Below, one piece after another: positions 6,494-63,559 of a stretch of 64,000 nt of DNA (position 1 is its first letter; every line of letters begins with the position of its first letter). This stretch comes from Eledone cirrhosa (Eukaryota): NCBI GenBank assembly GCA_964016885.1, contig OZ024751.1, forward strand, positions 19,716,001-19,780,000. Direction: 5' to 3'. A program made the translations under genes and the position numbers. The notes under the pieces were generated by a model that saw only the letters and a program-made list of their open reading frames with translations, did not search any database and was not told the DNA's origin.

Positions 6494-6746
6494 TGGTGGC
6501 TGCCAACTCGTTTTCGAGTACGGCCACTACTTTATATCCATGTAGGAGAACCCCTACCGATGCGCTGAACGAGTGTGACTTTTTAGTCCAGCCAGCGACT
6601 TGAACACTCTGGTACAAACACTACACTTGTGACAATTATTGACACATAGTGCTGGGCCCATGGTACCATGTGACGACAAGTGCAGAGAGATCTCCAGATA
6701 TAAAGCAATGCCTGTGCTGTGAAGCTTTTATAGTGAGCAAAGGCAC
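6494..6746 (-). mobile_element. 3' end of an RTE-like LINE encoding a C-terminal C2H2 zinc finger
   Basis: 6554-6625(-) encodes [23 protein letters not shown]; short 3' UTR and (TGTA)n tail; near-identical copies at 43435 and 43825. Confidence 0.75.
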
Positions 6747-6759
6747 ATACATACATACA

Positions 6760-7440
6760 TACTGCACAAAAGAGGAGGGCCAGCAGCTGACAATAAATGT
6801 AAGCCACATTGTTGCCAGCTGCGAAAGAATGTCATCTCGCTACTACCTCCCATGAGACACGATGGGATAGCTAGAACCATCTGGAACGCACTTCGGAAAA
6901 CAAAATTAACAACAAACGAGGAAAAATATATTGAGACGGATGGCACTAAGGAATACTGGTGGAACCTGAAAATAAAAACTACCACCAAATTAAAGCACAA
7001 CCGGCCTGATATTGTTGTTTGGTACCACACATTGAAAACGTGTTCTGTTGTGGAGATCAGCTGCCCACTTGTGGTAAACGTTGTCAGAAAAATACAGAAG
7101 GAGGACATCTACGGACCATTGATTAGGAGTTTACAAATCCAGTATCCAAGATACACCTTTAGCTTCATACCCATCATTATTGGAGCTACGGGTTATATAC
7201 CAACCCGCTTGGACCAAAGTATGACTGAACTTGGATTTGCGGACAAAAAGCGCAGCTCCCTAATTCATAGTCTACAAATGGCTGCGATAGCTGGCACCTT
7301 CAAAATTTGCAAAACATTCTTGCGATTCAAGGGATGACAATTTCTTTTCTTTTACAACCTTGCCACCAGGAAGGTGGCCGGTCAAAAAAAATATTCTCGA
7401 AATTAAGAGAAAGAGATAACATACATACATACATACATAC
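6760..7440 (+). mobile_element. 5'-truncated R4/Dong-like non-LTR retrotransposon (RLE endonuclease end)
   Basis: HIVASC (end of CCHC knuckle), frameshift, RHD, HNRPDIVVW..C.VVEISCP, K...Y, PIIIGATG motifs; (TACA)n on both sides. Confidence 0.88.
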
Positions 7441-9117: not shown

Positions 9118-9188
9118 TGACGTACATGGGACACGAACCCACATCTTTGGTTTGCTGGACCAATGCGTTACCATTACACTAACACACC
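9118..9188 (-). pseudogene. tRNA-like cloverleaf (AGC anticodon, Ala-like), probably pseudo-tRNA
   Basis: GGTGTGT-TA-GTGT/ACGC D-arm, TTGGT-CCAGCAA-ACCAA anticodon arm, GTGGG-TTCGTGT-CCCAT T-arm, GTACGTC-A; T-run downstream; C33 instead of U33 and 4 G-U acceptor pairs. Confidence 0.7.
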
Positions 9189-9403
9189 ACCCATGCCTGC
9201 TTCCATTCAATTAGAAGCTATATATATATATATATCGTCGGGGTCCTGACTCTTTTCCTATTACCCACTCTACTACTCTAAGTATCGAGTACTCTGGTGC
9301 ATTAGGGTTCACCTGATTCCTTACCACACTTCCTTCGTTATATATCAGTTTTAGAATTCCCTTTTCGGATTATAATACTGTGGTAGCCCTGGTTATCTGT
9401 TGA

Positions 9404-9981: not shown

Positions 9982-10179
9982 TGATATGTATTGGTGTAAA
10001 ATGGTGGTGTTGCACATGTTAAAGAAATGGTGCAGAAAGAATAATGTTATTTACAAACAAGGTTTATGAAGTGAAAAGAAAAAAGGAACGTAATGTGGAG
10101 CATAAAAAGTCAATGTGAAAGAAAAAATGTTATTTACAGGCATAGTTCTTGAGTGATTCTTTGCTTAAACTTTAATCTG

Positions 10180-10228
<49 letters not shown>

Positions 10229-10233
<5 letters not shown>

Positions 10234-10437
10234 AACGAGTAGGACCCCGACGGCTGAGCTCAAGCCGTTTCGACGGCTAATTCTGGACCCGAATTTGAGT
10301 CCAGAATTAGCCGTCGAAACGGCTTGAGCTCAGCCGTCGGGGTCCTACACGTTCCTATTACCCACTCTACTACCCTAAGTATTGAGTACTTTGGTGCGTC
10401 ATGGTCCATCTGGTTCCTTACCACATTTCCTTCGTTA
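10229..10437 (+). mobile_element. Foldback family A (~210 bp, (TA)n-embedded, half-hammerhead palindrome), reference copy
   Basis: 60-bp arms 10229-10288/10299-10358 with 1 mismatch, plus an 80-bp unique tail; other copies at 9236, 11414, 18233, 18343, 21085, 22186, 35499, 35951, 42513, 46235, 62632. Confidence 0.92.
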
Positions 10438-10477
10438 TATATATATATATATATATATATTTATTTAATTTATTTAT

Positions 10478-10688
10478 TATAATAACAGATTAAAGTTTAA
10501 GCAAAGAATCGCTGCTTTCATCCTTAACGGGATCTTCTGAAACTAAAAAAGAAGATCCCGTTAAGGGTGAAAGCAGCAATTTTTTGCTTAAACTTTAATA
10601 CTTTACGGTTTTTATATATTCATATATATATAATCCTTATCGAGCCCTCTTCGGATTTTAGTCTTCACATTTTTTATTATTACTATAT
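10478..10688. mobile_element. Foldback family B, with a hammerhead-like fold at 10494-10544(-)
   Basis: Inverted arms around 10545; homologous to 14866-15040 and 60940-61149. Confidence 0.85.
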
Positions 10689-11377: not shown

Positions 11378-11418
<41 letters not shown>

Positions 11419-11601
11419 GAAAATGTATGACCCCGACGACAGAGCTCAAGCTGTTTCGACCGCTATTTCTGAAATAGCCGTCGAAACGGCTTGAGATCTG
11501 CCGTCGGGGTCATACATTTTCCTATTACCCACTCTACTACCCTAAGTATTGAGTACTCTGGTGCGTTATGGTCCATCTGGTTCCTTACCACAACTCCTTC
11601 G

Positions 11602-11633
<32 letters not shown>

Positions 11634-14529: not shown

Positions 14530-14782
14530 TATAAAGAAAAAAAGATGAAATCGAAAATGCAACTGGGGTCATATTTAAAAAAAAATATATATATTTATTT
14601 GGTTCCTTTACCGGTTTCGCAGTTCTGCTTTTCAAATGTGAGAAAAACCACAAACCCTCCATCTCAACTCTACTTTTGAAAAGCAGAAGAACTGCGAAAC
14701 CGGTAAAGGACCCAAATAAATATATATATTTAAAAAAAAATAAGACTCCAGTTGCATTTTCGATTTCATCTTTTTTTCTCTA
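14530..14782. mobile_element. Divergently oriented inverted pair, each arm with a minimal U3-A8 hammerhead (14606-14637 -, 14673-14708 +)
   Basis: ~105-bp inverted arms; ctt-TTGAAAA-gcag aagaa ctgc-GAAA-ccgg-TA-aag followed by aataaa. Confidence 0.8.
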
Positions 14783-14865
14783 TATATATATAGTAATAAT
14801 TATTTCTACTTTAGGCACAAGGCCAGCAATTACCCAGTGCATTACTGGTAGTTTATTTTATATAT

Positions 14866-18184: not shown

Positions 18185-18237
<53 letters not shown>

Positions 18238-18300
18238 AAAATGTATGACCCCGACGGCAGAGCTCAAGCCGTTTCGACGGCTATTTCTTGACTAAATTGA

Positions 18301-18345
<45 letters not shown>

Positions 18346-18527
18346 CGAAGGAAATGTGGTAAGGAACCAGGTGGACCATAACGCACCAAAGTACTCAATA
18401 CTTAGGGTAGTAGAGTGGGTAATAGGAACAAGTATGACCCCAACGGCAAAGCTCAAGCCGTTTCGACGGCTAATTCTGAATTAGCCGTCGAAACGGCTTG
18501 AGCTCTGCCGTCGGGATCATACTTGTT

Positions 18528-18572
<45 letters not shown>

Positions 18573-20439: not shown

Positions 20440-21057
20440 GTATGTATGTTCTTCTGGTTTTATAATTTCACAATTTGTTACCAATAGAGAGAGAGAGTCG
20501 GTTTCTAATTAGATACAAGATTCTCTCATTGGAATTTACACAGCATCAACTAGGTAGATATGTATGCACGTATGTGTAGATATGGATGTTATTGTATGTG
20601 TGGATGTGTATGTTTTGAGTTGTATGTGTTCATGTGTATATGCTTTGTATCTGTACATGTGTATATGCAGTTATTAGATGCAGAATTTTTGAAATGTTTT
20701 ACATATTTTTACTGTTCCATTAATGGATTGTACTTGTAATTTCCTAACTAGTTGTGTTCTTTCTGTTCCTGTGAAGCTTAGCTTCTCAAGATTTGTATTG
20801 AGGCAGTTACTAACATATCTCAGTTTCCCAATAATCACAGGCATAAATCTGAAGGTATAATCAGGGTGGAGTATCTGCAGATTTCTCATTAGTTCTGCAT
20901 AAATATTCTCCTTTTCGCTAATCTTTGATATTATATTGGCATCTGCTGGGCAGCTAAATTCCACTACTGTGCATGTCTTCATTTCCCTGTCCCATATCAT
21001 AATATCTGGTCTGTTATGCCTGCATTTTATTGGGTTTTTTACTGGAACATTCCATCT
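20440..21057 (-). mobile_element. Second, divergent R4/Dong-like RLE fragment with 3' UTR
   Basis: WNVPVKNPIKCRHNRPDIMIWDREMKTCTVVEFSCP..KENIY..PVIIG..GTVKICKTF; co-linear with the 6852-7337 protein. Confidence 0.85.
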
Positions 21058-21264
21058 TTCATGTTATGTGTATGTACGAATGAACGAAAAAAATCAGGAT
21101 CCCGACGGCTGAGCTCCGGCCGTTTCAACAGTTCAGATCTAGCTGTTGAAACGGCCGGAGCTCAGTCGTCGGGGTCCTGAAGTTTTTCATATTACCCACT
21201 CTACTATCTCAAGTATCTAGTACTCTGGTGAGTAATGGTCTAACTGGTTTTTACCGCCTCAATT

Positions 21265-22063: not shown

Positions 22064-22322
22064 AGATATATTTGTGCTTATATATATATATATCAAGCGT
22101 TAACCTAATATATATCTTCCATATACTGTACCGATTGTGTTATATCTGTTCACCTTTTACACATATATATATATATATATATATCTAACGAAGGAATTGT
22201 GGTAAGAAACCAGATGGACCATAACGCACCAAAGTACTCAATACTTAGGGTAGTAGAGTGGGTAATAGGAACATTTATGACCCCGACGGCTTGAGCTCTG
22301 CCGTCGGAGTCATACTTGTTCC

Positions 22323-22356
<34 letters not shown>

Positions 22357-23729: not shown

Positions 23730-26548
23730 CATCATCATCATCACCGTTTTACGTCCGTTCTTCCACGCTAGCATGGGTTAGACGGGTTGTCCTGTTGTGG
23801 GCAGTGTCTGGTCGGCTGACCATGCCTTGCTCATACAGGAACTGATCTGGCTTGATTTCTACAGCTGGATGCCCTTCCTAACACCAACCTCATTTTCAGT
23901 GAGTGCTGGGTGCTTTTTCGTGGCGCCTACACGTCCACTTTACAGTGTGGGCTGGGTGCTTTTTTGCCGTGGCACCTCCACGACCACCTTGCGGTGGGGG
24001 GGGGGGCATATTGTTTATATGCTTCAGCATGTACCCATGGGAGGTCGGGTACCCTGTATTACTGCGTGACGCCAGAAGTCACGGTCGTGTGTCATTGACT
24101 TTGAGAGGTGTAGTTGGGTAAGGTCGGCTTTTATCACCTCATCCCAAGTCATCTTGGGTCTCCCCACTCCGCGGTTTCCATCAACTTCTAGTGCTCTGCA
24201 CCTTTTTATGCAGCTGTCATCCTTCATACGCATCACATGTCCATACCAGCGTAACCGCCTCTCCTGCACGCAGCATTTGATTCCTCTTATGCTCAGTCTC
24301 TCTCTCAATTCATTTATGCTTTGTCGTTCACGTATATTACTGTTACACATCCATCGGAGCATGCAGGCTTCGTTTCTCTCTAATCTACGTAAGTCTTCCA
24401 CCTTCAGCGCCCAGGTCTCACTACCATGCAACATCGCTGTTCGGATACACGCATCATACAGTCTGCCTTTCATTCTGAGGGAGAAGCCTTTTGCAGCTAG
24501 CAGTGGTAGTAGTTCCCTAAACTTCTTCCATCCCGTTCTTACCCTAGTTATTGTACTTTCTGAGCACCCACCTCCGTTGCTAATTCGGTCACCTAGGTAG
24601 CAGAAGCTGTCTACTGTTTCTACAGGACCCTCCCAGAGATTGGTGGTACTTGTTTCCTGTGGCTGTTTGCTTGCTGTTTCAGCACAGCTGCTGCATGTGA
24701 ATCCTACATTCTTAATTAAGCTTCCTGAGATCCCGCTACATCTCTTGTGTACCCATTGTTTGCATTTGGGGCAAAGAATGGAGTTCCTACCTACACCTTT
24801 CCTACATACTGAGCAAGGCCATTTCCCTGAGGGGATCTGGGTTCTGTTTTCTCGTCTACTTATAAGGACCTTAGTCTTTGTCATGTTGACTTTGAGGCCC
24901 TTTCTCTCTAGTCCCTGCTTCCAGGTTTGGAATTTATTCTCTAGTTCTACCATAGATTCAGCTATGAGTGCGAGGTCATCAGCATACAGGAGTTCCCATG
25001 GGCATCCGGTCTTAAACTCCTCCGTTATTGCCTGCAGGACTATGATGAACAGGAGAGGGCTAAGAACAGAGCCCTGGTGGACCCCAACCTGTACGCTAAA
25101 TTCCTCGCTATACTCATTGCCAATCCTAACTTTGCTGACTGCTCCCCTATACATGGCTTGTACCGCTTTCACAAGCCATTCATCTACTCCTAGTTTTCTA
25201 AGAGCCCACCAGATTACTGCACGTGGAACTCTGTCAAAGGCTTTCTCAAGGTCGACAAATGCCAAGTAGAGTGGCTTACTTTTAGCTAGGTACTTTTCCT
25301 GTAATTGCCTCACAAGGAAGAGCGCATCAGTGGTGCCTTTCCCTGGTACAAACCCAAATTGCATCTCGTCTATATTCACCCGGTCCCTAATCAGCTGTGC
25401 TATAACTCTTTCTGTTACTTTCATGACCTGGTCCATCAACTTTATACCTCTATAGTTTCCTCTATCTAGTGCATCGCCTTTACCTTTGTAGCAGTTGACA
25501 ATGATGCTACTGCACCAATCTTTTGGTATGGCCCCCTCTAGTATTACCTGGTTAACGATACGTGTGGTTATAGTGTGACCTACAGACCCAGATGCCTTCA
25601 GCATCTCGGCAGCTATACCCGATGGACCGGTTGCCTTCCCTATCTTCATATCTCTGATTGCCTTACTTACTACGCTGCCGCTGACTTGTACTGCTGGTCC
25701 CTCTATAGGGTCTACGTGGGGTAGGGTCTCTTCTTCCCATGCATTCTCCTCATTTAGTAATCTATCATAATGACTCTTCCATGCATCTTTCTTCTCAGCA
25801 CTTGTGAGGGCAAGCTCACCTTTATCATTCCGGATACACTTCTCTCCAATGACATCACAACTATCTCTGACACACTGCCTCGCAATCTTGAATACCTCCT
25901 GTTTCTGGTCCTCACGTTGTAAAACATGCTTGAATTTTCTATCCTCTGCTTCCCTCCTAGCTAAGTATACTTGTCGCCTAGCTTCCCTCTTGGTCTCTAT
26001 GTAATGTACCCTGCTCCCCCCGTTCTTCCATTCTTTCCATGCCTGTCTCTTGGCCTTGACTGCTTCATCTACCTTATTGTTCCACCACCAAGTCACTCTC
26101 CTCCTGCTTGAGGTCTTACTCCAGCCACAAACCTCATCCGTCGCCTCTAGTAAGTTATTTTTTAGGAACTCCCAGTTCTCTTCTACGTTAAATGTCTCTA
26201 TCTGTTCTTCTTTACTGTCGTAGGCGTTGAGTAAAATATCTTTAAATCTGTTACTGGTTGAGGGGACTTTCAGCTTCCAGATCTTTCTTCTCCAGGTTGG
26301 CCTCTGTTTCAGGGCTCGTCTAGTTCTGACCGTGAGGTCGCTGACAACTAAGCTATGTTGGGATGTACATTCCTCACTAGGGAAGGCTTTTGTGTTTACG
26401 ACCGTCCATCTGTCACGTCCTCTGATGAGGATAAAATCTAACTGACTAGAGTGCTCCCCTGATCTATAGGTGATCAGGTGGTTGTCGGGTTTTTTAAAGT
26501 TTGTGTTACATATCGACATGTCATTGGCGTCGCAGAATTCTAGAAGTC
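23730..26548 (-). mobile_element. RTE-clade LINE, 5'-truncated, recent
   Basis: (GAT)n tail, ~280-bp 3' UTR, candidate TSD tgtgcat at 23723-23729 / 26549-26555, uninterrupted ORF. Confidence 0.96.
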
Positions 26549-26549
26549 T
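24024..26549 (-). CDS. RTE ORF, 841 codons without stop: C-terminal APE endonuclease + reverse transcriptase + PHD-like finger (no native start)
   Basis: RLLEFC..ICNTNF, SQLDFIL, SQHSLV; [35 protein letters not shown]; FCYLG; [18 protein letters not shown]. Confidence 0.95.
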
Positions 26550-26727
26550 GTGCATATATATATATATATATATATGGGTATATGTTTGTATAAATGTATG
26601 TATGTGTATATATATATATATGGGTATATGTTTGTATAAATGTATGTATGTGTATATATATATATGGGTATATGTTTGTATAAATGTATGTGTATATATA
26701 TATATATATGGGTATATGTTTGTATAA

Positions 26728-26786
<59 letters not shown>

Positions 26787-26944
26787 CACATTTATACAAA
26801 GATATACCTATCTATATATCTATGTATACTTAGATACAACTATACCCCTCTAATCATGTCCCAAAAGTCTGTTGGCACTTTAATTACAGTTCCTTGTTAC
26901 AAGTTACCTCCATTATGGGACACATTGTATGAACAGAAATGCAA

Positions 26945-35457: not shown

Positions 35458-35501
<44 letters not shown>

Positions 35502-35722
35502 CGAAGGAAATGTGGTAAGGAACCAGGTGGACCATAACGCACTAAAGTACTCAATACTTAGGGTAGTAGAGTGATGACGATGATATAGTCTTTGATTTTC
35601 CCGCTTTTACTTCGGTCCAGTTTACATACGGGTCACTTTTACGACCTTTCAGACCTTTATTAGCTGGCAGGAGGTTGTATATTTTGTCGTTCCTGGGACG
35701 TTTAGCCCTAGGAAGGGAAAAT

Positions 35723-35804
35723 GCTTCTCTGATGAGCTTTGGTTTTCCATCATAAATCCATCGGATTTATGAGGTTTTACAAAGCGAAACTGATCAGTAA
35801 GGGC
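35723..35804 (+). ncRNA. Canonical type I hammerhead within a ~310-bp insert (35588-35890)
   Basis: gcttct-CTGATGA-gctttg..tcataaatcc atc ggatttatga..caaagc-GAAA-ctgatcag-TA-agggc; stem III actgatcagt palindromic. Confidence 0.85.
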
Positions 35805-36085
35805 CACTAGGAGAGGTAAATATTTATATTATATTTTTTAATGTATTTTGAAAAATTGATTGAATTTTACTTGTTCTGCTTATCTTAATATATATATATA
35901 TATATGTGTGTGTCTTTACACAAACACACATATATATATATATATATATATAACGAAGGAAATGTGGTAAGGAACCAGGTGGACCATAACGCACCAAAGT
36001 ACTCAATACTTGAGGTAGTAGAGTGGGTAATAGGAACCAGTAAGACCCCGACAGCTGAGCTCAAGCCGTTTCGACGGCTAATTCT

Positions 36086-36145
<60 letters not shown>

Positions 36146-41638: not shown

Positions 41639-42714
41639 TTGTGATATCAGTCTCAAAGTTAAATTGAATGTCATGCTTTCTCTAATATCAGAAGCAATAA
41701 ATTATTATTTATTTATCTACTATATTATAATATTTATTTACATAGCTTGTCATAACACCTCAATATTTTTCTAGTATGTCATTATATAGTCTGTATATTT
41801 TAAAAACGACGCAATGTATTATTTAAGATAGTATGTCGTTGTAAGAGGGAGTTTTCTCACGTTTTGAAGTCCTCCTTTGTGGAAGAGGGTCGGAATGGAT
41901 TCACCTTTTCTTTCATCTTTAAAAAAAAAATCAAAACAAACTTGTGCCCCAAATATCTTCTTTCTCCCTATCTCTCCCTATCTCTCCTTCTCTTGCCACA
42001 ACGTCTCCCTCCCTCCTCGCCGAAATAATTTCAGTTTTATATCAATAAAGAAAAGAATAGAAATAAAAGATGTGATGGTCATGGTATGTTCTCTCTTTCT
42101 CCCCCCTCTTTCTCTGTTCGTCTCTATCCCTCTCCCCCCTCTGTCTCTGTTCGTCTCTATCCTTCTCCCCCTCTGTCTCTGTTCGTCTCTATCCTTCTCC
42201 CCCTCTTTCTCTGTTCGTCTCTATCCCTCTCCTCCTCTTTCTCTGTTCGTCTCTATTACCCCCCTTTTCTCTGTTCGTCTCTCAACAACGTCCGCACCTC
42301 TCCCTCTCTCTCTCCTTTTCTCCTGTCTTTCTTCCTATATCTCTCCCTCTCACTCCCCAGTCTCTTTCTAAACGAGATGTTGTTCAACAATAGACGTTAC
42401 AAGTCAACCACCCTCTCTACATTGCCCTCATTTTTCCAACATAAAGCGTGAAACTAATAAGACTTTTGTACCTCTGTTTGCTGTCTCCTTGAACTATATA
42501 TATATATATATATAACAAAGGAATTGTGGTAAGGAACCAGATGGACCATAACGCACCAGAGTACTCAATACTTAGAGTAGTAGAGTGGGAAATAGGAAAA
42601 AGTATGACTCCGACGGCAGAGCTCAAGCCGTTTCGACGGCTATTTCTGGAATAAATTTAGTCCAGAAATAGCCGTCGAAACGGCTTGAGCTCTGCCGCCG
42701 GGGTCATGCTATTT

Positions 42715-42760
<46 letters not shown>

Positions 42761-46168: not shown

Positions 46169-46239
<71 letters not shown>

Positions 46240-46330
46240 AAAATGTTTGACCCCGACGGCAGAGCTTACCCTAAGTATTGAGTACTCTGGTGCGTTATGG
46301 TCCATCTGGTTCTTTACCACACTTCCTTCG

Positions 46331-46398
<68 letters not shown>

Positions 46399-60939: not shown

Positions 60940-61149
60940 TAGTAATAATAATAAATTTGAAGACTAAAATCCAAAGAGAGCTCGATAAGGAAAATATATA
61001 TCAAATATATAAGAACCGTAGAGCAAATATTTATTAAAATAACAGATTAAAGTTTAAGCTAAGAATCGCTGCTTTCACCCTTAACGGGATCTTAAGGGTG
61101 AAAGCAGCGATTCTTTGCTTAAACTTTAATCTGTTATTTTAATAAATAT
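60940..61149. mobile_element. Family B foldback copy
   Basis: ~58-bp inverted arms centred on cgggatc; homologous to 10478-10688. Confidence 0.85.
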
Positions 61150-61204
61150 ATATATATATATATATATAATATATATATATATATATAATATATATATATA
61201 TATA

Positions 61205-61446
61205 TACAATATTAAATAAATGGAAAACTATATTTATAAAACCATATCTATTTCATTATATATATTTCGGGGATATCATATTAACAATATGTTATGCCTT
61301 CATCAGACAAAATACAATATAAACAGTTTTATATTGTATTTTGTCTGATGAAGGCATAACATATTGTTAATATGATATCCCCGAAATATATATAATGAAA
61401 TAGATATGGTTTTATAAATATAGTTTTCCATTTATTTAATATTGTA
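61205..61446. mobile_element. Perfect 119-bp-arm palindrome carrying mirror hammerheads (61337-61402 +, 61249-61314 -)
   Basis: Arms 61205-61323 / 61328-61446, loop cagt; tattttgt-CTGATGA-agg..ccc-GAAA-tatata-TA-atgaaata. Confidence 0.88.
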
Positions 61447-61660
61447 AATATACTCCAAATATTTGTCGAGTGCTTTTATATCAGTTATAAATATTTACTA
61501 GTTGTAACCCAACAATTTTAAATATAACTTTCCATATATATATATATATATATTCCTTCGGAATTACCTAACACACACACATATATATATAACACGTTGA
61601 TAAATACATACAAATATCTACCATACATACATATTAGCGTATATATATATACATATGTAT

Positions 61661-62555: not shown

Positions 62556-62837
62556 ATAAATACCTAAAAAGTGTTCCTTACACATACACACATACACACA
62601 CACATACACACACACACACACACACATATATATAGGAACGAGTAGGACCCCGACGGCTGAGTTCAAGCCGTTTCGACGGCTAATTCTGGACTCGAATTTT
62701 TGTCCAGAATTAGCCGTCGAAACGGCTTGAGCTCAGCCTTTGGGGTCCTACTCGTTCGTATTACCCACTCTACTACCCTAAGTATTGAGTACTTTGGTGC
62801 GTTATGGTCCACCTGGTTCCTTACCACATTTCCTTCG

Positions 62838-62874
<37 letters not shown>

Positions 62875-63559
62875 TAAAGTGGTCCTTCATCAGTGATCTT
62901 CCAACCAACATCGGTATTTCTTCGCTAAGATCACTGATGAAGGACCACTTTATTCATATGTAACCCATTTGCAACTCCGCAGCACGTTTATTCTCATATA
63001 TATATATATATATAAAATATAACATACACCTATAACAGTAATTGGCAAAGTTGTCCACGGTGGGATTTGAACTCAGAGAGCAGAGATCATTCTACCCGAC
63101 ATTCTAATGACTTTGTCAATTCGCCGCCTCATACAGAGATTTATATATACACAAACATTCAAACATACATATACACATATACAATTATTTTATATACAAT
63201 ATATAAAGTACTTATATATTTATAATTACATATTATATCCGTATGTCACACACCAATGAAATGGCGTCAAAGCTGAAATGACTGTATCCAGACTTCTTGG
63301 GTGTTTATTATCTGCGTGGCTGATTATTTTATAATCCATCAATGGGTCATTATTTGAAATGACTCTTCAATAAATAGAAAGGTGTAAATGTGTCTTGTGA
63401 ACGATCGTTGTTATTGTAGTAGTTGTTGAGGTGTTGTAATTGAATGGAGATAGTTGATTGTAGTTACATCGTGGGGTGGGGCTGGGTGGCTGGGGTGGTG
63501 GGGTGGGTGGCTAGTATTGGGGAATGGTTTAAGAAGTGAAATCGTGGTTTCAAGGTGTG

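Follow-up and report, generated by a model that had tools for sequence, protein, structure and literature searches.

Mirrored family A repeats of Eledone cirrhosa are probably truncated insertions of a Hydra-clade Penelope-like element, joined from two cDNAs

We suggest, with a probability of about 0.78, that the family A repeats of Eledone cirrhosa are 5'-truncated insertions of a Penelope-like element (PLE), and that their mirrored form arose when both target strands primed a cDNA and the two cDNAs were end-joined. The parent element was found and the anatomy of the insertions was established: there is one tail per insertion, the mirror is regenerated at insertion, and either arm may be the longer one. 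The mirror centres fall into three classes, namely centres near -41 with an extra G, random long truncations, and centres exactly at the predicted GUC cleavage site of a hammerhead ribozyme (about 1-2% of insertions). Below, the window is the whole stretch of 64,000 nucleotides analysed (contig OZ024751.1, positions 19,716,001 to 19,780,000). Element positions are counted from 0, the first base 3' of the predicted GUC cut, which is window position 10339. Hand counts refer to the first rows, up to 100, listed by a search, and these rows belong to the largest contigs.

Anatomy and copy number of family A

The copy at 10229 is a 209-base unit (10229-10437) lying between (TA)n tracts at 10184-10228 and 10438-10460; insertion into (TA)n is described for the Hydra clade in PMC8557442. 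Positions 10229-10358 form a near-perfect palindrome, with arms matching at 95% and a fold z of -18, and are followed by an unpaired tail of 79 nt ending at 10437. The tail-less arm (10229-10288, minus strand; parent +19 to -40) would represent the cDNA from an inner reverse transcriptase (RT) start. The ends of such arms cluster at the join of CCTAT and (TA)n, and the initial annotation had correctly placed the end of the mirror arm at CCTAT. The head-to-head junction (10289-10297) is copy-specific and includes a G at 10297 that is absent from the parent and may be a copied cap. The tailed arm (10298-10358, plus strand; parent -41 to +19) has as its first base the A of an initiator-like YYAGTY, and this A at 10298 is a putative transcription start. 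The tail (10359-10437, plus strand; +20 to +98) lies between two candidate RT starts, and its sequence continues into the 5' leader and the ORF in the full-length element.

The tailed arm contains the 3' half of a hammerhead ribozyme. On the plus strand, the 3' strand of stem II is found at 10308-10315 and pairs with an upstream strand of the parent, with covariation. The GAAA core and stem III follow at 10316-10337, with a palindromic GAGCTC loop at 10326-10331, and the predicted cleavage site GUC/GGGG is at 10338-10339, where hundreds of other copies start exactly. This agrees with the initial annotation, which had GAAA at 10316 and TC at 10337-10338. The same annotation described the element as a hammerhead 3' half mirrored about stem II. 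The 3' half is present, but the "stem II" of the mirrored copy is a product of the mirror; the true 5' strand of stem II is located upstream in the parent and differs in sequence. The copy starts at -41 and lacks the hammerhead 5' core strand, and the window has no family A core. The copies are, as first proposed, catalytically incomplete, since the catalytic 5' half is missing.

Twelve copies had been claimed for the window. There are 12 BLAST clusters, but only seven have both mirror and tail and the rest are partial. Besides the copy at 10229, the seven comprise 11413-11604 (+), 18343-18532 (-), 42513-42719 (-) and 62632-62840 (+; same subfamily as 10229), a copy of an older subfamily at 21086-21249 (+), and a tailed copy with its join inside stem III at 22186-22325 (-). 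The partial copies are a tailed copy starting at about -4 (9236-9340, +), a tail-less arm alone (18233-18298, -), a tail fragment (35499-35573, -), an unmirrored single arm with tail that starts at -40 (35951-36089, -), and a deleted copy in which a short tail-less arm is joined to a tail fragment (46235-46333, +). Subfamily variants were said to appear in both arms of a copy and loops to differ between copies. Both statements hold, with the same subfamily call for the two arms in 63 of 65 ungapped mirrors and 32 distinct loops among 40 copies of the window's subfamily.

We found 26 clusters in 660 kb of unselected DNA, corresponding to about 118,000 (77,000-173,000) in the genome of 3.0 Gb, and we estimate that family A has around 100,000 copies. 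An Rfam search of the window gave microsatellite-driven miRNA matches and one tRNA among the 150 matches listed of 406, and the output of an exact inverted-repeat search of the window was dominated by microsatellites.

The parent element

Some copies (L038, L067 and L077) extend upstream without a mirror. Following such copies led to RT and GIY-YIG coding sequence (L148) and then to an intact unit, L247. L247 consists of an inverted truncated copy, a repeat, a 719-aa RT/GIY-YIG ORF and a second repeat, with a period of 3,118 bp. Its tail passes into the leader, and the ATG is located approximately 190 nt 3' of the cut site. A partial tandem of pseudo-LTRs with an adjacent inverted truncated copy is present in both L247 and L260. 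The layout of inverted copy and tail is a published PLE feature (PMC8557442 and PMC3846280).

In brief, the single ORF of L247 encodes an RT with YRDD followed by a GIY-YIG endonuclease with VIY..YIG. Further motifs are RWR at 37, DKTG at 117, CxCx5C at 572, CxxC at 670 and CxH at 698. The GIY-YIG core has one Cys between VIY and YIG and no CCHH. A search with the protein gave 2,054 homologues at E<=1e-30 among 8,000 scored, the top match carrying PF01541. The full 719-aa ORF gave no match in a Pfam search, and three of five fragments gave sub-threshold GIY-YIG matches (E 0.012). PMC8557442 defines the Hydra clade by RWK, DKT, a CxCx5C linker, no CCHH, CxxC and CxH, and a (TA)n target. Because its motifs and target match this description, family A is, as judged by these characters, a Hydra-clade PLE. 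A Naiad origin was rejected; Naiad has an N-terminal endonuclease and DKA, whereas family A has neither.

It should be noted that the parent 3' UTR in L247 contains a length-variable low-complexity tract, approximately 475-900 bp upstream of the 3' cut site. Tracts of this type vary between insertions and agree between the two arms of one insertion.

Regeneration of the mirror at insertion

The initial annotation proposed that the palindrome is regenerated at each insertion. This is borne out by 15 long pairs, in every one of which the sequence closest to the tail-less arm is its own partner; left arms are closer to their own right arms than to other left arms, and the tree pairs arms by locus. 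Of the variants found in two copies in these 15 pairs, 138 are common to the two arms of one insertion, compared with 4 shared across insertions. For the short arms of the window's subfamily the comparison has little power, with 0 private variants in both arms among 40 copies. One change is confined to the tailed arm in 7 of these 40 copies, probably due to the query carrying that change. Each copy has its own centre; added bases, templated inserts and microhomology joins are seen there, as is typical of end-joining. Some exact short mirrors have long A/T runs between the arms (for example C1 43259606 and 44860431), which suggests that the RT slipped or added bases when it reached the end of the template.

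A MITE, or another DNA element with fixed terminal inverted repeats, would likewise be short, palindromic, TA-flanked and of high copy number. The arms of family A are, however, continuous with an RT/GIY-YIG ORF and range in length from 19 bp to more than 3 kb, their centres are copy-specific, and one arm is tailed. Left arms would form a separate clade if they descended from an ancestral MITE terminal repeat; arms group by insertion instead, and not by side. We regard the probability of a DNA element as negligible.

Three further arrangements were observed. The mirror at L026:1737-1852 has two arms that each begin from the tail end, and an adjoining full copy carries the same private variant, which suggests repeated priming from one RNA. 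L005/L006 are two identical tandem copies, loop included, 219 bp apart, and are explained either by duplication at the DNA level or by an assembly repeat. Hairpins with long arms of equal length are found too, as at L038:785-1634, where a symmetric mirror of 770 bp with 365-bp arms is followed by a tail.

Two primed cDNAs

Of 78 short mirrors, 75 carry a tail on one arm and none on the other, and the 3' ends of arms pile up at +19 and +98. The same two ends recur in independent contigs, as the loose ends at L247:2909 and 2989, each followed by TA repeats. Among the first 100 listed matches to the whole core, 42 form 21 divergent pairs that are 0.15-5.5 kb apart, and none form convergent pairs within 6 kb (hand counts).

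The initial annotation explained the mirror by cDNA fold-back and self-priming on the ribozyme hairpin. One cDNA would snap back and be copied until a jump to (TA)n at CCTAT; self-priming on an antisense template is proposed for PLE inverted repeats in PMC3846280. Such a process would yield a single-tailed mirror whose arms share variants, hairpins are present in the parent close to the common centre, and some centres are perfect palindromes. The arm lengths tell against it. The 27 long pairs (one further locus yielded no pair) divide into 12 with a longer tail-less arm, 10 with a longer tailed arm and 5 that are equal or undetermined; dropping L243, which has an internal deletion, leaves the tail-less arm longer in 11 of 21 clear pairs. 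The corresponding numbers for 23 short pairs (hand count) are 9, 10 and 4 equal. In L255 and L148 the excess of the tail-less arm amounts to as much as 2.4 kb of antisense element sequence. Folding back the tailed cDNA could never leave the tail-less arm in excess. Neither is the centre set by the hairpin, as had been assumed, since the inner part of stem II varies between subfamilies whereas the start at A(-41) is kept. In addition, centres of 0-1 nt with an added A or T are too short for a priming loop, and the cut-site ends and the extra G described below indicate sense RNA. We find fold-back improbable; it is largely refuted for the long copies and could still act in some of the short ones.

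The two-end pattern and the symmetry of the arms match the in vitro findings on an Anolis PLE, which nicks both strands and extends them from two internal points on the RNA, so defining the tail (PMC11167929). The same observations argue against the self-priming of PMC3846280.

The common centre near -41

Of 58 arms in unselected DNA, 53 have their end at -32 to -47, where arms had to reach -33 for detection, and none of the 100 arm ends listed from 4,480 exact short mirrors lies beyond -47 (hand count). Among insertions with a long arm, 2 of 17 have the partner arm ending at -30 to -50 (binomial P about 4e-11 at 0.85), and adding four pairs without any tail makes this 6 of 21; most of the 81 selected long arms have no partner within the locus. 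Because so few partners of long arms end in the -41 zone, we take the mirror centre to be the end of the template and not a chance stall.

A(-41) is invariant in 24 of 24 aligned parents, within YYAGTY, while the inner helix changes. The motif resembles an initiator. In short arms, the base before A(-41) is T in 23, G in 16, C in 9 and A in 0 cases, after two pattern-selected rows were dropped; T is the parent-type base and is at this position indistinguishable from untemplated addition. The non-parent G at -42 is found in short arms of old and young subfamilies alike, and the partner arm leaves about 9 G, but at most one C, at -42 without explanation. In L1, an additional 5' G has been interpreted as a copy of the cap (PMC9341517), and an internal promoter is described for Penelope of D. 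virilis (PMC2377424). We favour the view, drawn from sequence, that the common centre is probably a capped transcription start inside stem II of the hammerhead, so that most templates would lack the catalytic 5' half.

With two-strand priming retained, the ends at -41 to -47 might instead come from RT stalling or from a nuclease cut in the terminal hairpin of stem II. We give this a clearly smaller, though appreciable, chance. The ends lie within the 3' strand of the inner hairpin in young subfamilies, they are spread across 15 positions, and many bear added A's and not a cap G. Stalling, however, predicts a short partner for most long arms, in place of the 2 of 17 seen. In addition, the same AGT start is used in subfamilies with a different inner helix, and the unexplained base at -42 is G. 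A nuclease cut in the loop is a possible source of these ends. A separate master lineage of short copies was also considered and rejected, as haplotypes are common to short and long copies.

The hammerhead ribozyme of the parent

The parent contains a whole type I hammerhead, with stem I, a 7-nt core strand, a long stem II, GAAA, stem III with the palindromic loop, and GUC. Of 44 arms that were chosen regardless of core, 35 have the core UUGAAAA. A core pattern with C or U at position 3 and G or A at position 8 gave 5,439 matches. In the first 100 listed of these (hand count), positions 3 and 8 are U-A in 78, C-A in 20 and U-G in 2, and N7 may be any of the four bases. The window's subfamily often carries the mismatched C3-A8 core, with C3 in 20 of the first 100 listed core matches. 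The older subfamilies gave 199 matches, the first 100 listed being U-A in 71, C-G in 19, U-G in 7 and C-A in 3; the C-G count includes two mutated mirror arms, leaving 17 CUGANGA. The canonical CUGANGA hammerhead is very rare in young subfamilies (only 6 of the 5,439 matches), and occurs regularly in the oldest subfamily type (17 of the first 100 listed). Both C3-G8 and U3-A8 states occur along one lineage.

The initial annotation had suggested a search for master copies by way of CUGANGA. Masters exist, but nearly all of the young ones read YUGANAA. CUGANGA directly upstream of the mirrored stem II gave 17 and 36 matches, all of them chance variants of arm or loop or an unrelated repeat. This search fails because the gaps used were too short for the real core and because young masters read YUGANAA.

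In 24 hand-picked parents, positions 3 and 8 are UA in 18, CG in 4, UG in 1 and otherwise in 1, which makes a standard pair in 23 of 24. In the same parents 90% of cells are paired, six pairs show a two-sided change (four of them in stem II) and helix III is invariant; these covariation counts are inflated by shared descent. The covariation score was reached in 0 of 500 shuffles. Minimum-energy folds gave the three-way junction in three of five parents, and the other two, of the window's subfamily, did not fold as a hammerhead. The fold z-scores of the parents are weak (0 to -2.1), and Rfam hammerhead models gave 0 matches at the gathering score on 5 loci.

Mini-mirrors at the predicted cleavage site

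A pattern with a short centre gave 911 loci, and both arms end at 0 in 17 of the first 50 listed (hand count). Subfamily patterns with a free centre gave 216 and 213 loci. The first 50 listed ACCAG mini-mirrors have both arms at 0 with an insert in 16 cases, a blunt join in 13, one arm at 0 in 13 and neither in 8; the blunt CCCC/GGGG class is ambiguous, as a 2-nt CG microhomology could also give it. Of their 100 arm ends (hand count), 38 are exactly at the site, 34 are ambiguous by one base, 24 are shorter and 4 pass the site by at least 2 bases. For the window's type, the first 50 listed comprise 11 with both arms at 0 and an insert, 1 blunt, 20 with one arm (12 of them ambiguous) and 18 with neither. 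All 20 loci fetched, which were picked from the classes with both arms at 0, have one tail and 0-6 nt between the arms, and they lie mostly inside (TA)n. The share of cut-site mirrors given above is relative to 27,556 uncut arms.

We consider it very likely, from the position of these ends, that a centre at position 0 would reflect RNA cut in vivo by the U3-A8 hammerhead. RT pausing at the base of stem III, just past the G run, or later deletion of the centre from the DNA, is an unlikely source of these mini-mirrors. The CG microhomology could yield the blunt class, joins at the stem III palindrome are also common, the C3-A8 core is without a subfamily effect, and PMC11167929 reports no RNA-seq ends at the site in Anolis. 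Against pausing or deletion, the 38 exact ends have a non-parent base next to them while only 4 ends pass by at least 2 bases, and the core and stems are kept with covariation across subfamilies. Furthermore, independent pausing should place an arm starting at 0 beside a long partner in about 8 cases (a rough expectation) among the 70 longer arms in 1.07 Mb of unselected DNA, and none was seen.

The expectation that the C3-A8-rich subfamily of the window cleaves less was not upheld. Its rate of cut-site mirrors is about equal, with approximately 47 versus 69 loci against an abundance of 42:58 (hand counts).

Proposed mechanism of insertion

In the mechanism that we propose, the element's enzyme would nick both strands of the (TA)n target. 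On the sense RNA, one cDNA would be primed at +98 and another at +19, the latter perhaps aided by a TAT match, and both would extend toward the RNA 5' end. Synthesis would run off where the template ends, which would be the cap near -41, the ribozyme cut or, on read-through RNA, a random point; the long arms would come from read-through RNA primed at the 3' repeat, with random truncation. The two cDNA ends would then be fused head to head by end-joining, and the mirror centre would mark the RNA 5' end.

A doubtful extension of this mechanism is that the PLE hammerhead cuts RNA that is then integrated, that the promoter lies inside the ribozyme, that a capped leader of 140 nt contains the promoter and both RT starts, and that the 200-bp stubs may be self-propagating. 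With a promoter inside the ribozyme, the main transcript would be unable to cut itself in cis. If the extension is true, each stub could rebuild its mirror every cycle, like integrated strong-stop DNA. The genome would then preserve PLE replication as a fossil record at single-base resolution, and with it the first in vivo evidence of such cutting. The sharing of haplotypes between short and long copies points neither way and is compatible with or without stubs as self-propagating mini-elements.

Other repeats in the window and nearby

Several other mirrored repeats were observed. The (TA)n-flanked head-to-head mirror at 61199-61452 has arms matching at 98% with CTGATGA within them, and is likely a second PLE family with an RNA start upstream of its hammerhead core. 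A mirror at 62865-62962, immediately following the family A copy at 62632, has CTGATGA in both arms and is likely a third family formed alike. An AT-rich mirror family is found at 61027-61149, 10489-10599 and 10152-10180, and in L148 at approximately 9130-9300; twice it adjoins family A copies within common (TA)n tracts. Yet another family is represented by a 255-bp imperfect mirror at 14530-14784. A canonical hammerhead-like core (CTGATGA, a 6-bp stem and GAAA) that is not family A starts at 35729 on the plus strand.

The window also contains an open frame of 927 codons at 24024-26807 (minus strand), a LINE with endonuclease and RT features that is presumably RTE-like and has a matching copy in L262. 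C-terminal fragments of LINEs with a restriction-like endonuclease, which we take to be R4/Dong-like, are found at 6723-7337 (+) and 20674-21063 (-). A tRNA-like match above the Rfam gathering score at 9118-9188 (-), 50 bp from a family A copy, is possibly a SINE head. Other related PLE families with a C-terminal GIY-YIG are located at L152:7528-9111, L155:6080-8682, L159:4315-4782 and L245:1994-3349, some of them nested in or beside family A parents.

Relation to known systems

In twin priming of L1, the second target strand primes internally on the RNA and the cDNAs are end-joined. The two L1 cDNAs cover different parts of the RNA, resulting in an inversion, whereas those of family A overlap and give an inverted duplication in most insertions.

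The closest known elements are the Hydra-clade PLEs of PMC8557442, including Hydra-1_Obim. They share with family A a C-terminal GIY-YIG, a length of about 3 kb, the (TA)n target, RWK-like, DKT, CxCx5C, CxxC and CxH motifs without CCHH, a hammerhead in the repeat, and an inverted truncated copy with a tail. Hydra-1_Obim is a separate family; its protein is, by eye, related to that of family A and not identical. Its listed ribozyme is canonical, with a stem II of 7 bp and an 8-nt loop, whereas family A has U3-A8 and a stem II domain of about 50 nt. The 79-nt tail of family A is longer than the usual, published 30-40 nt. In the text of the PMC8557442 supplement, where line breaks could hide matches, three of four family A motifs were absent and the match to the fourth was unrelated.

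Poseidon PAc of Anolis (Frangieh et al. 2024, PMC11167929) resembles family A in its AT-rich target and in having a hammerhead at the junction of repeat and ORF. It belongs to another clade, and its ORF starts in stem II, in contrast to approximately 190 nt after the cut in family A. The paper leaves the later steps open. The hammerheads of Cercyon PLEs in Schistosoma (Cervera and de la Pena 2014, PMC4209133) also have U3-A8, ribozyme pairs on opposite strands and a palindromic loop 3. They are minimal and without helix III, whereas family A has a helix III of 5 bp and a long stem II.

The inverted pLTRs of Adineta and Penelope of D. virilis are like family A in having head-to-head repeats, a tail on one side and an internal promoter (PMC3846280 and PMC2377424). 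Their layout has been explained by self-priming on an antisense template, whereas family A favours two primed cDNAs on sense RNA. Animal non-LTR retrozymes are likewise short, non-coding, hammerhead-bearing and PLE-derived, but form tandem direct arrays with whole ribozymes, while family A consists of dispersed head-to-head mirrors with half a ribozyme (bioRxiv 10.64898/2026.07.22.740005).

Inverted copies, tails and U3-A8 cores are already published; PMC8557442 covers the truncated inverted copies, the tails and the (TA)n targeting, and also reports Hydra elements from Octopus. In the mostly open-access literature searched, we found no report of twin priming in PLEs, of family A, or of PLE insertions ending at a hammerhead cut.

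Implications

How the inverted repeats and tails of PLEs are constructed, and whether their hammerheads cut in vivo, are stated open questions. With about 1e5 copies and young intact ORFs, family A offers naturally occurring material in which two-strand priming can be told from self-priming and RNA 5' ends can be located to the base. The same reading is applicable to any PLE-rich genome, and to the four other mirror families in the window. It accounts for a large class of unannotated palindromic repeats that are possibly called MITEs or miRNA-like hairpins. It is plausible that family A copies are a dense source of dsRNA for A-to-I editing. Family A also provides a natural series of ribozymes from C3-G8 to U3-A8, and if the reading of the cut site is true, the minority of stubs that begin exactly there would document in the genome that the ribozyme cuts in living cells.
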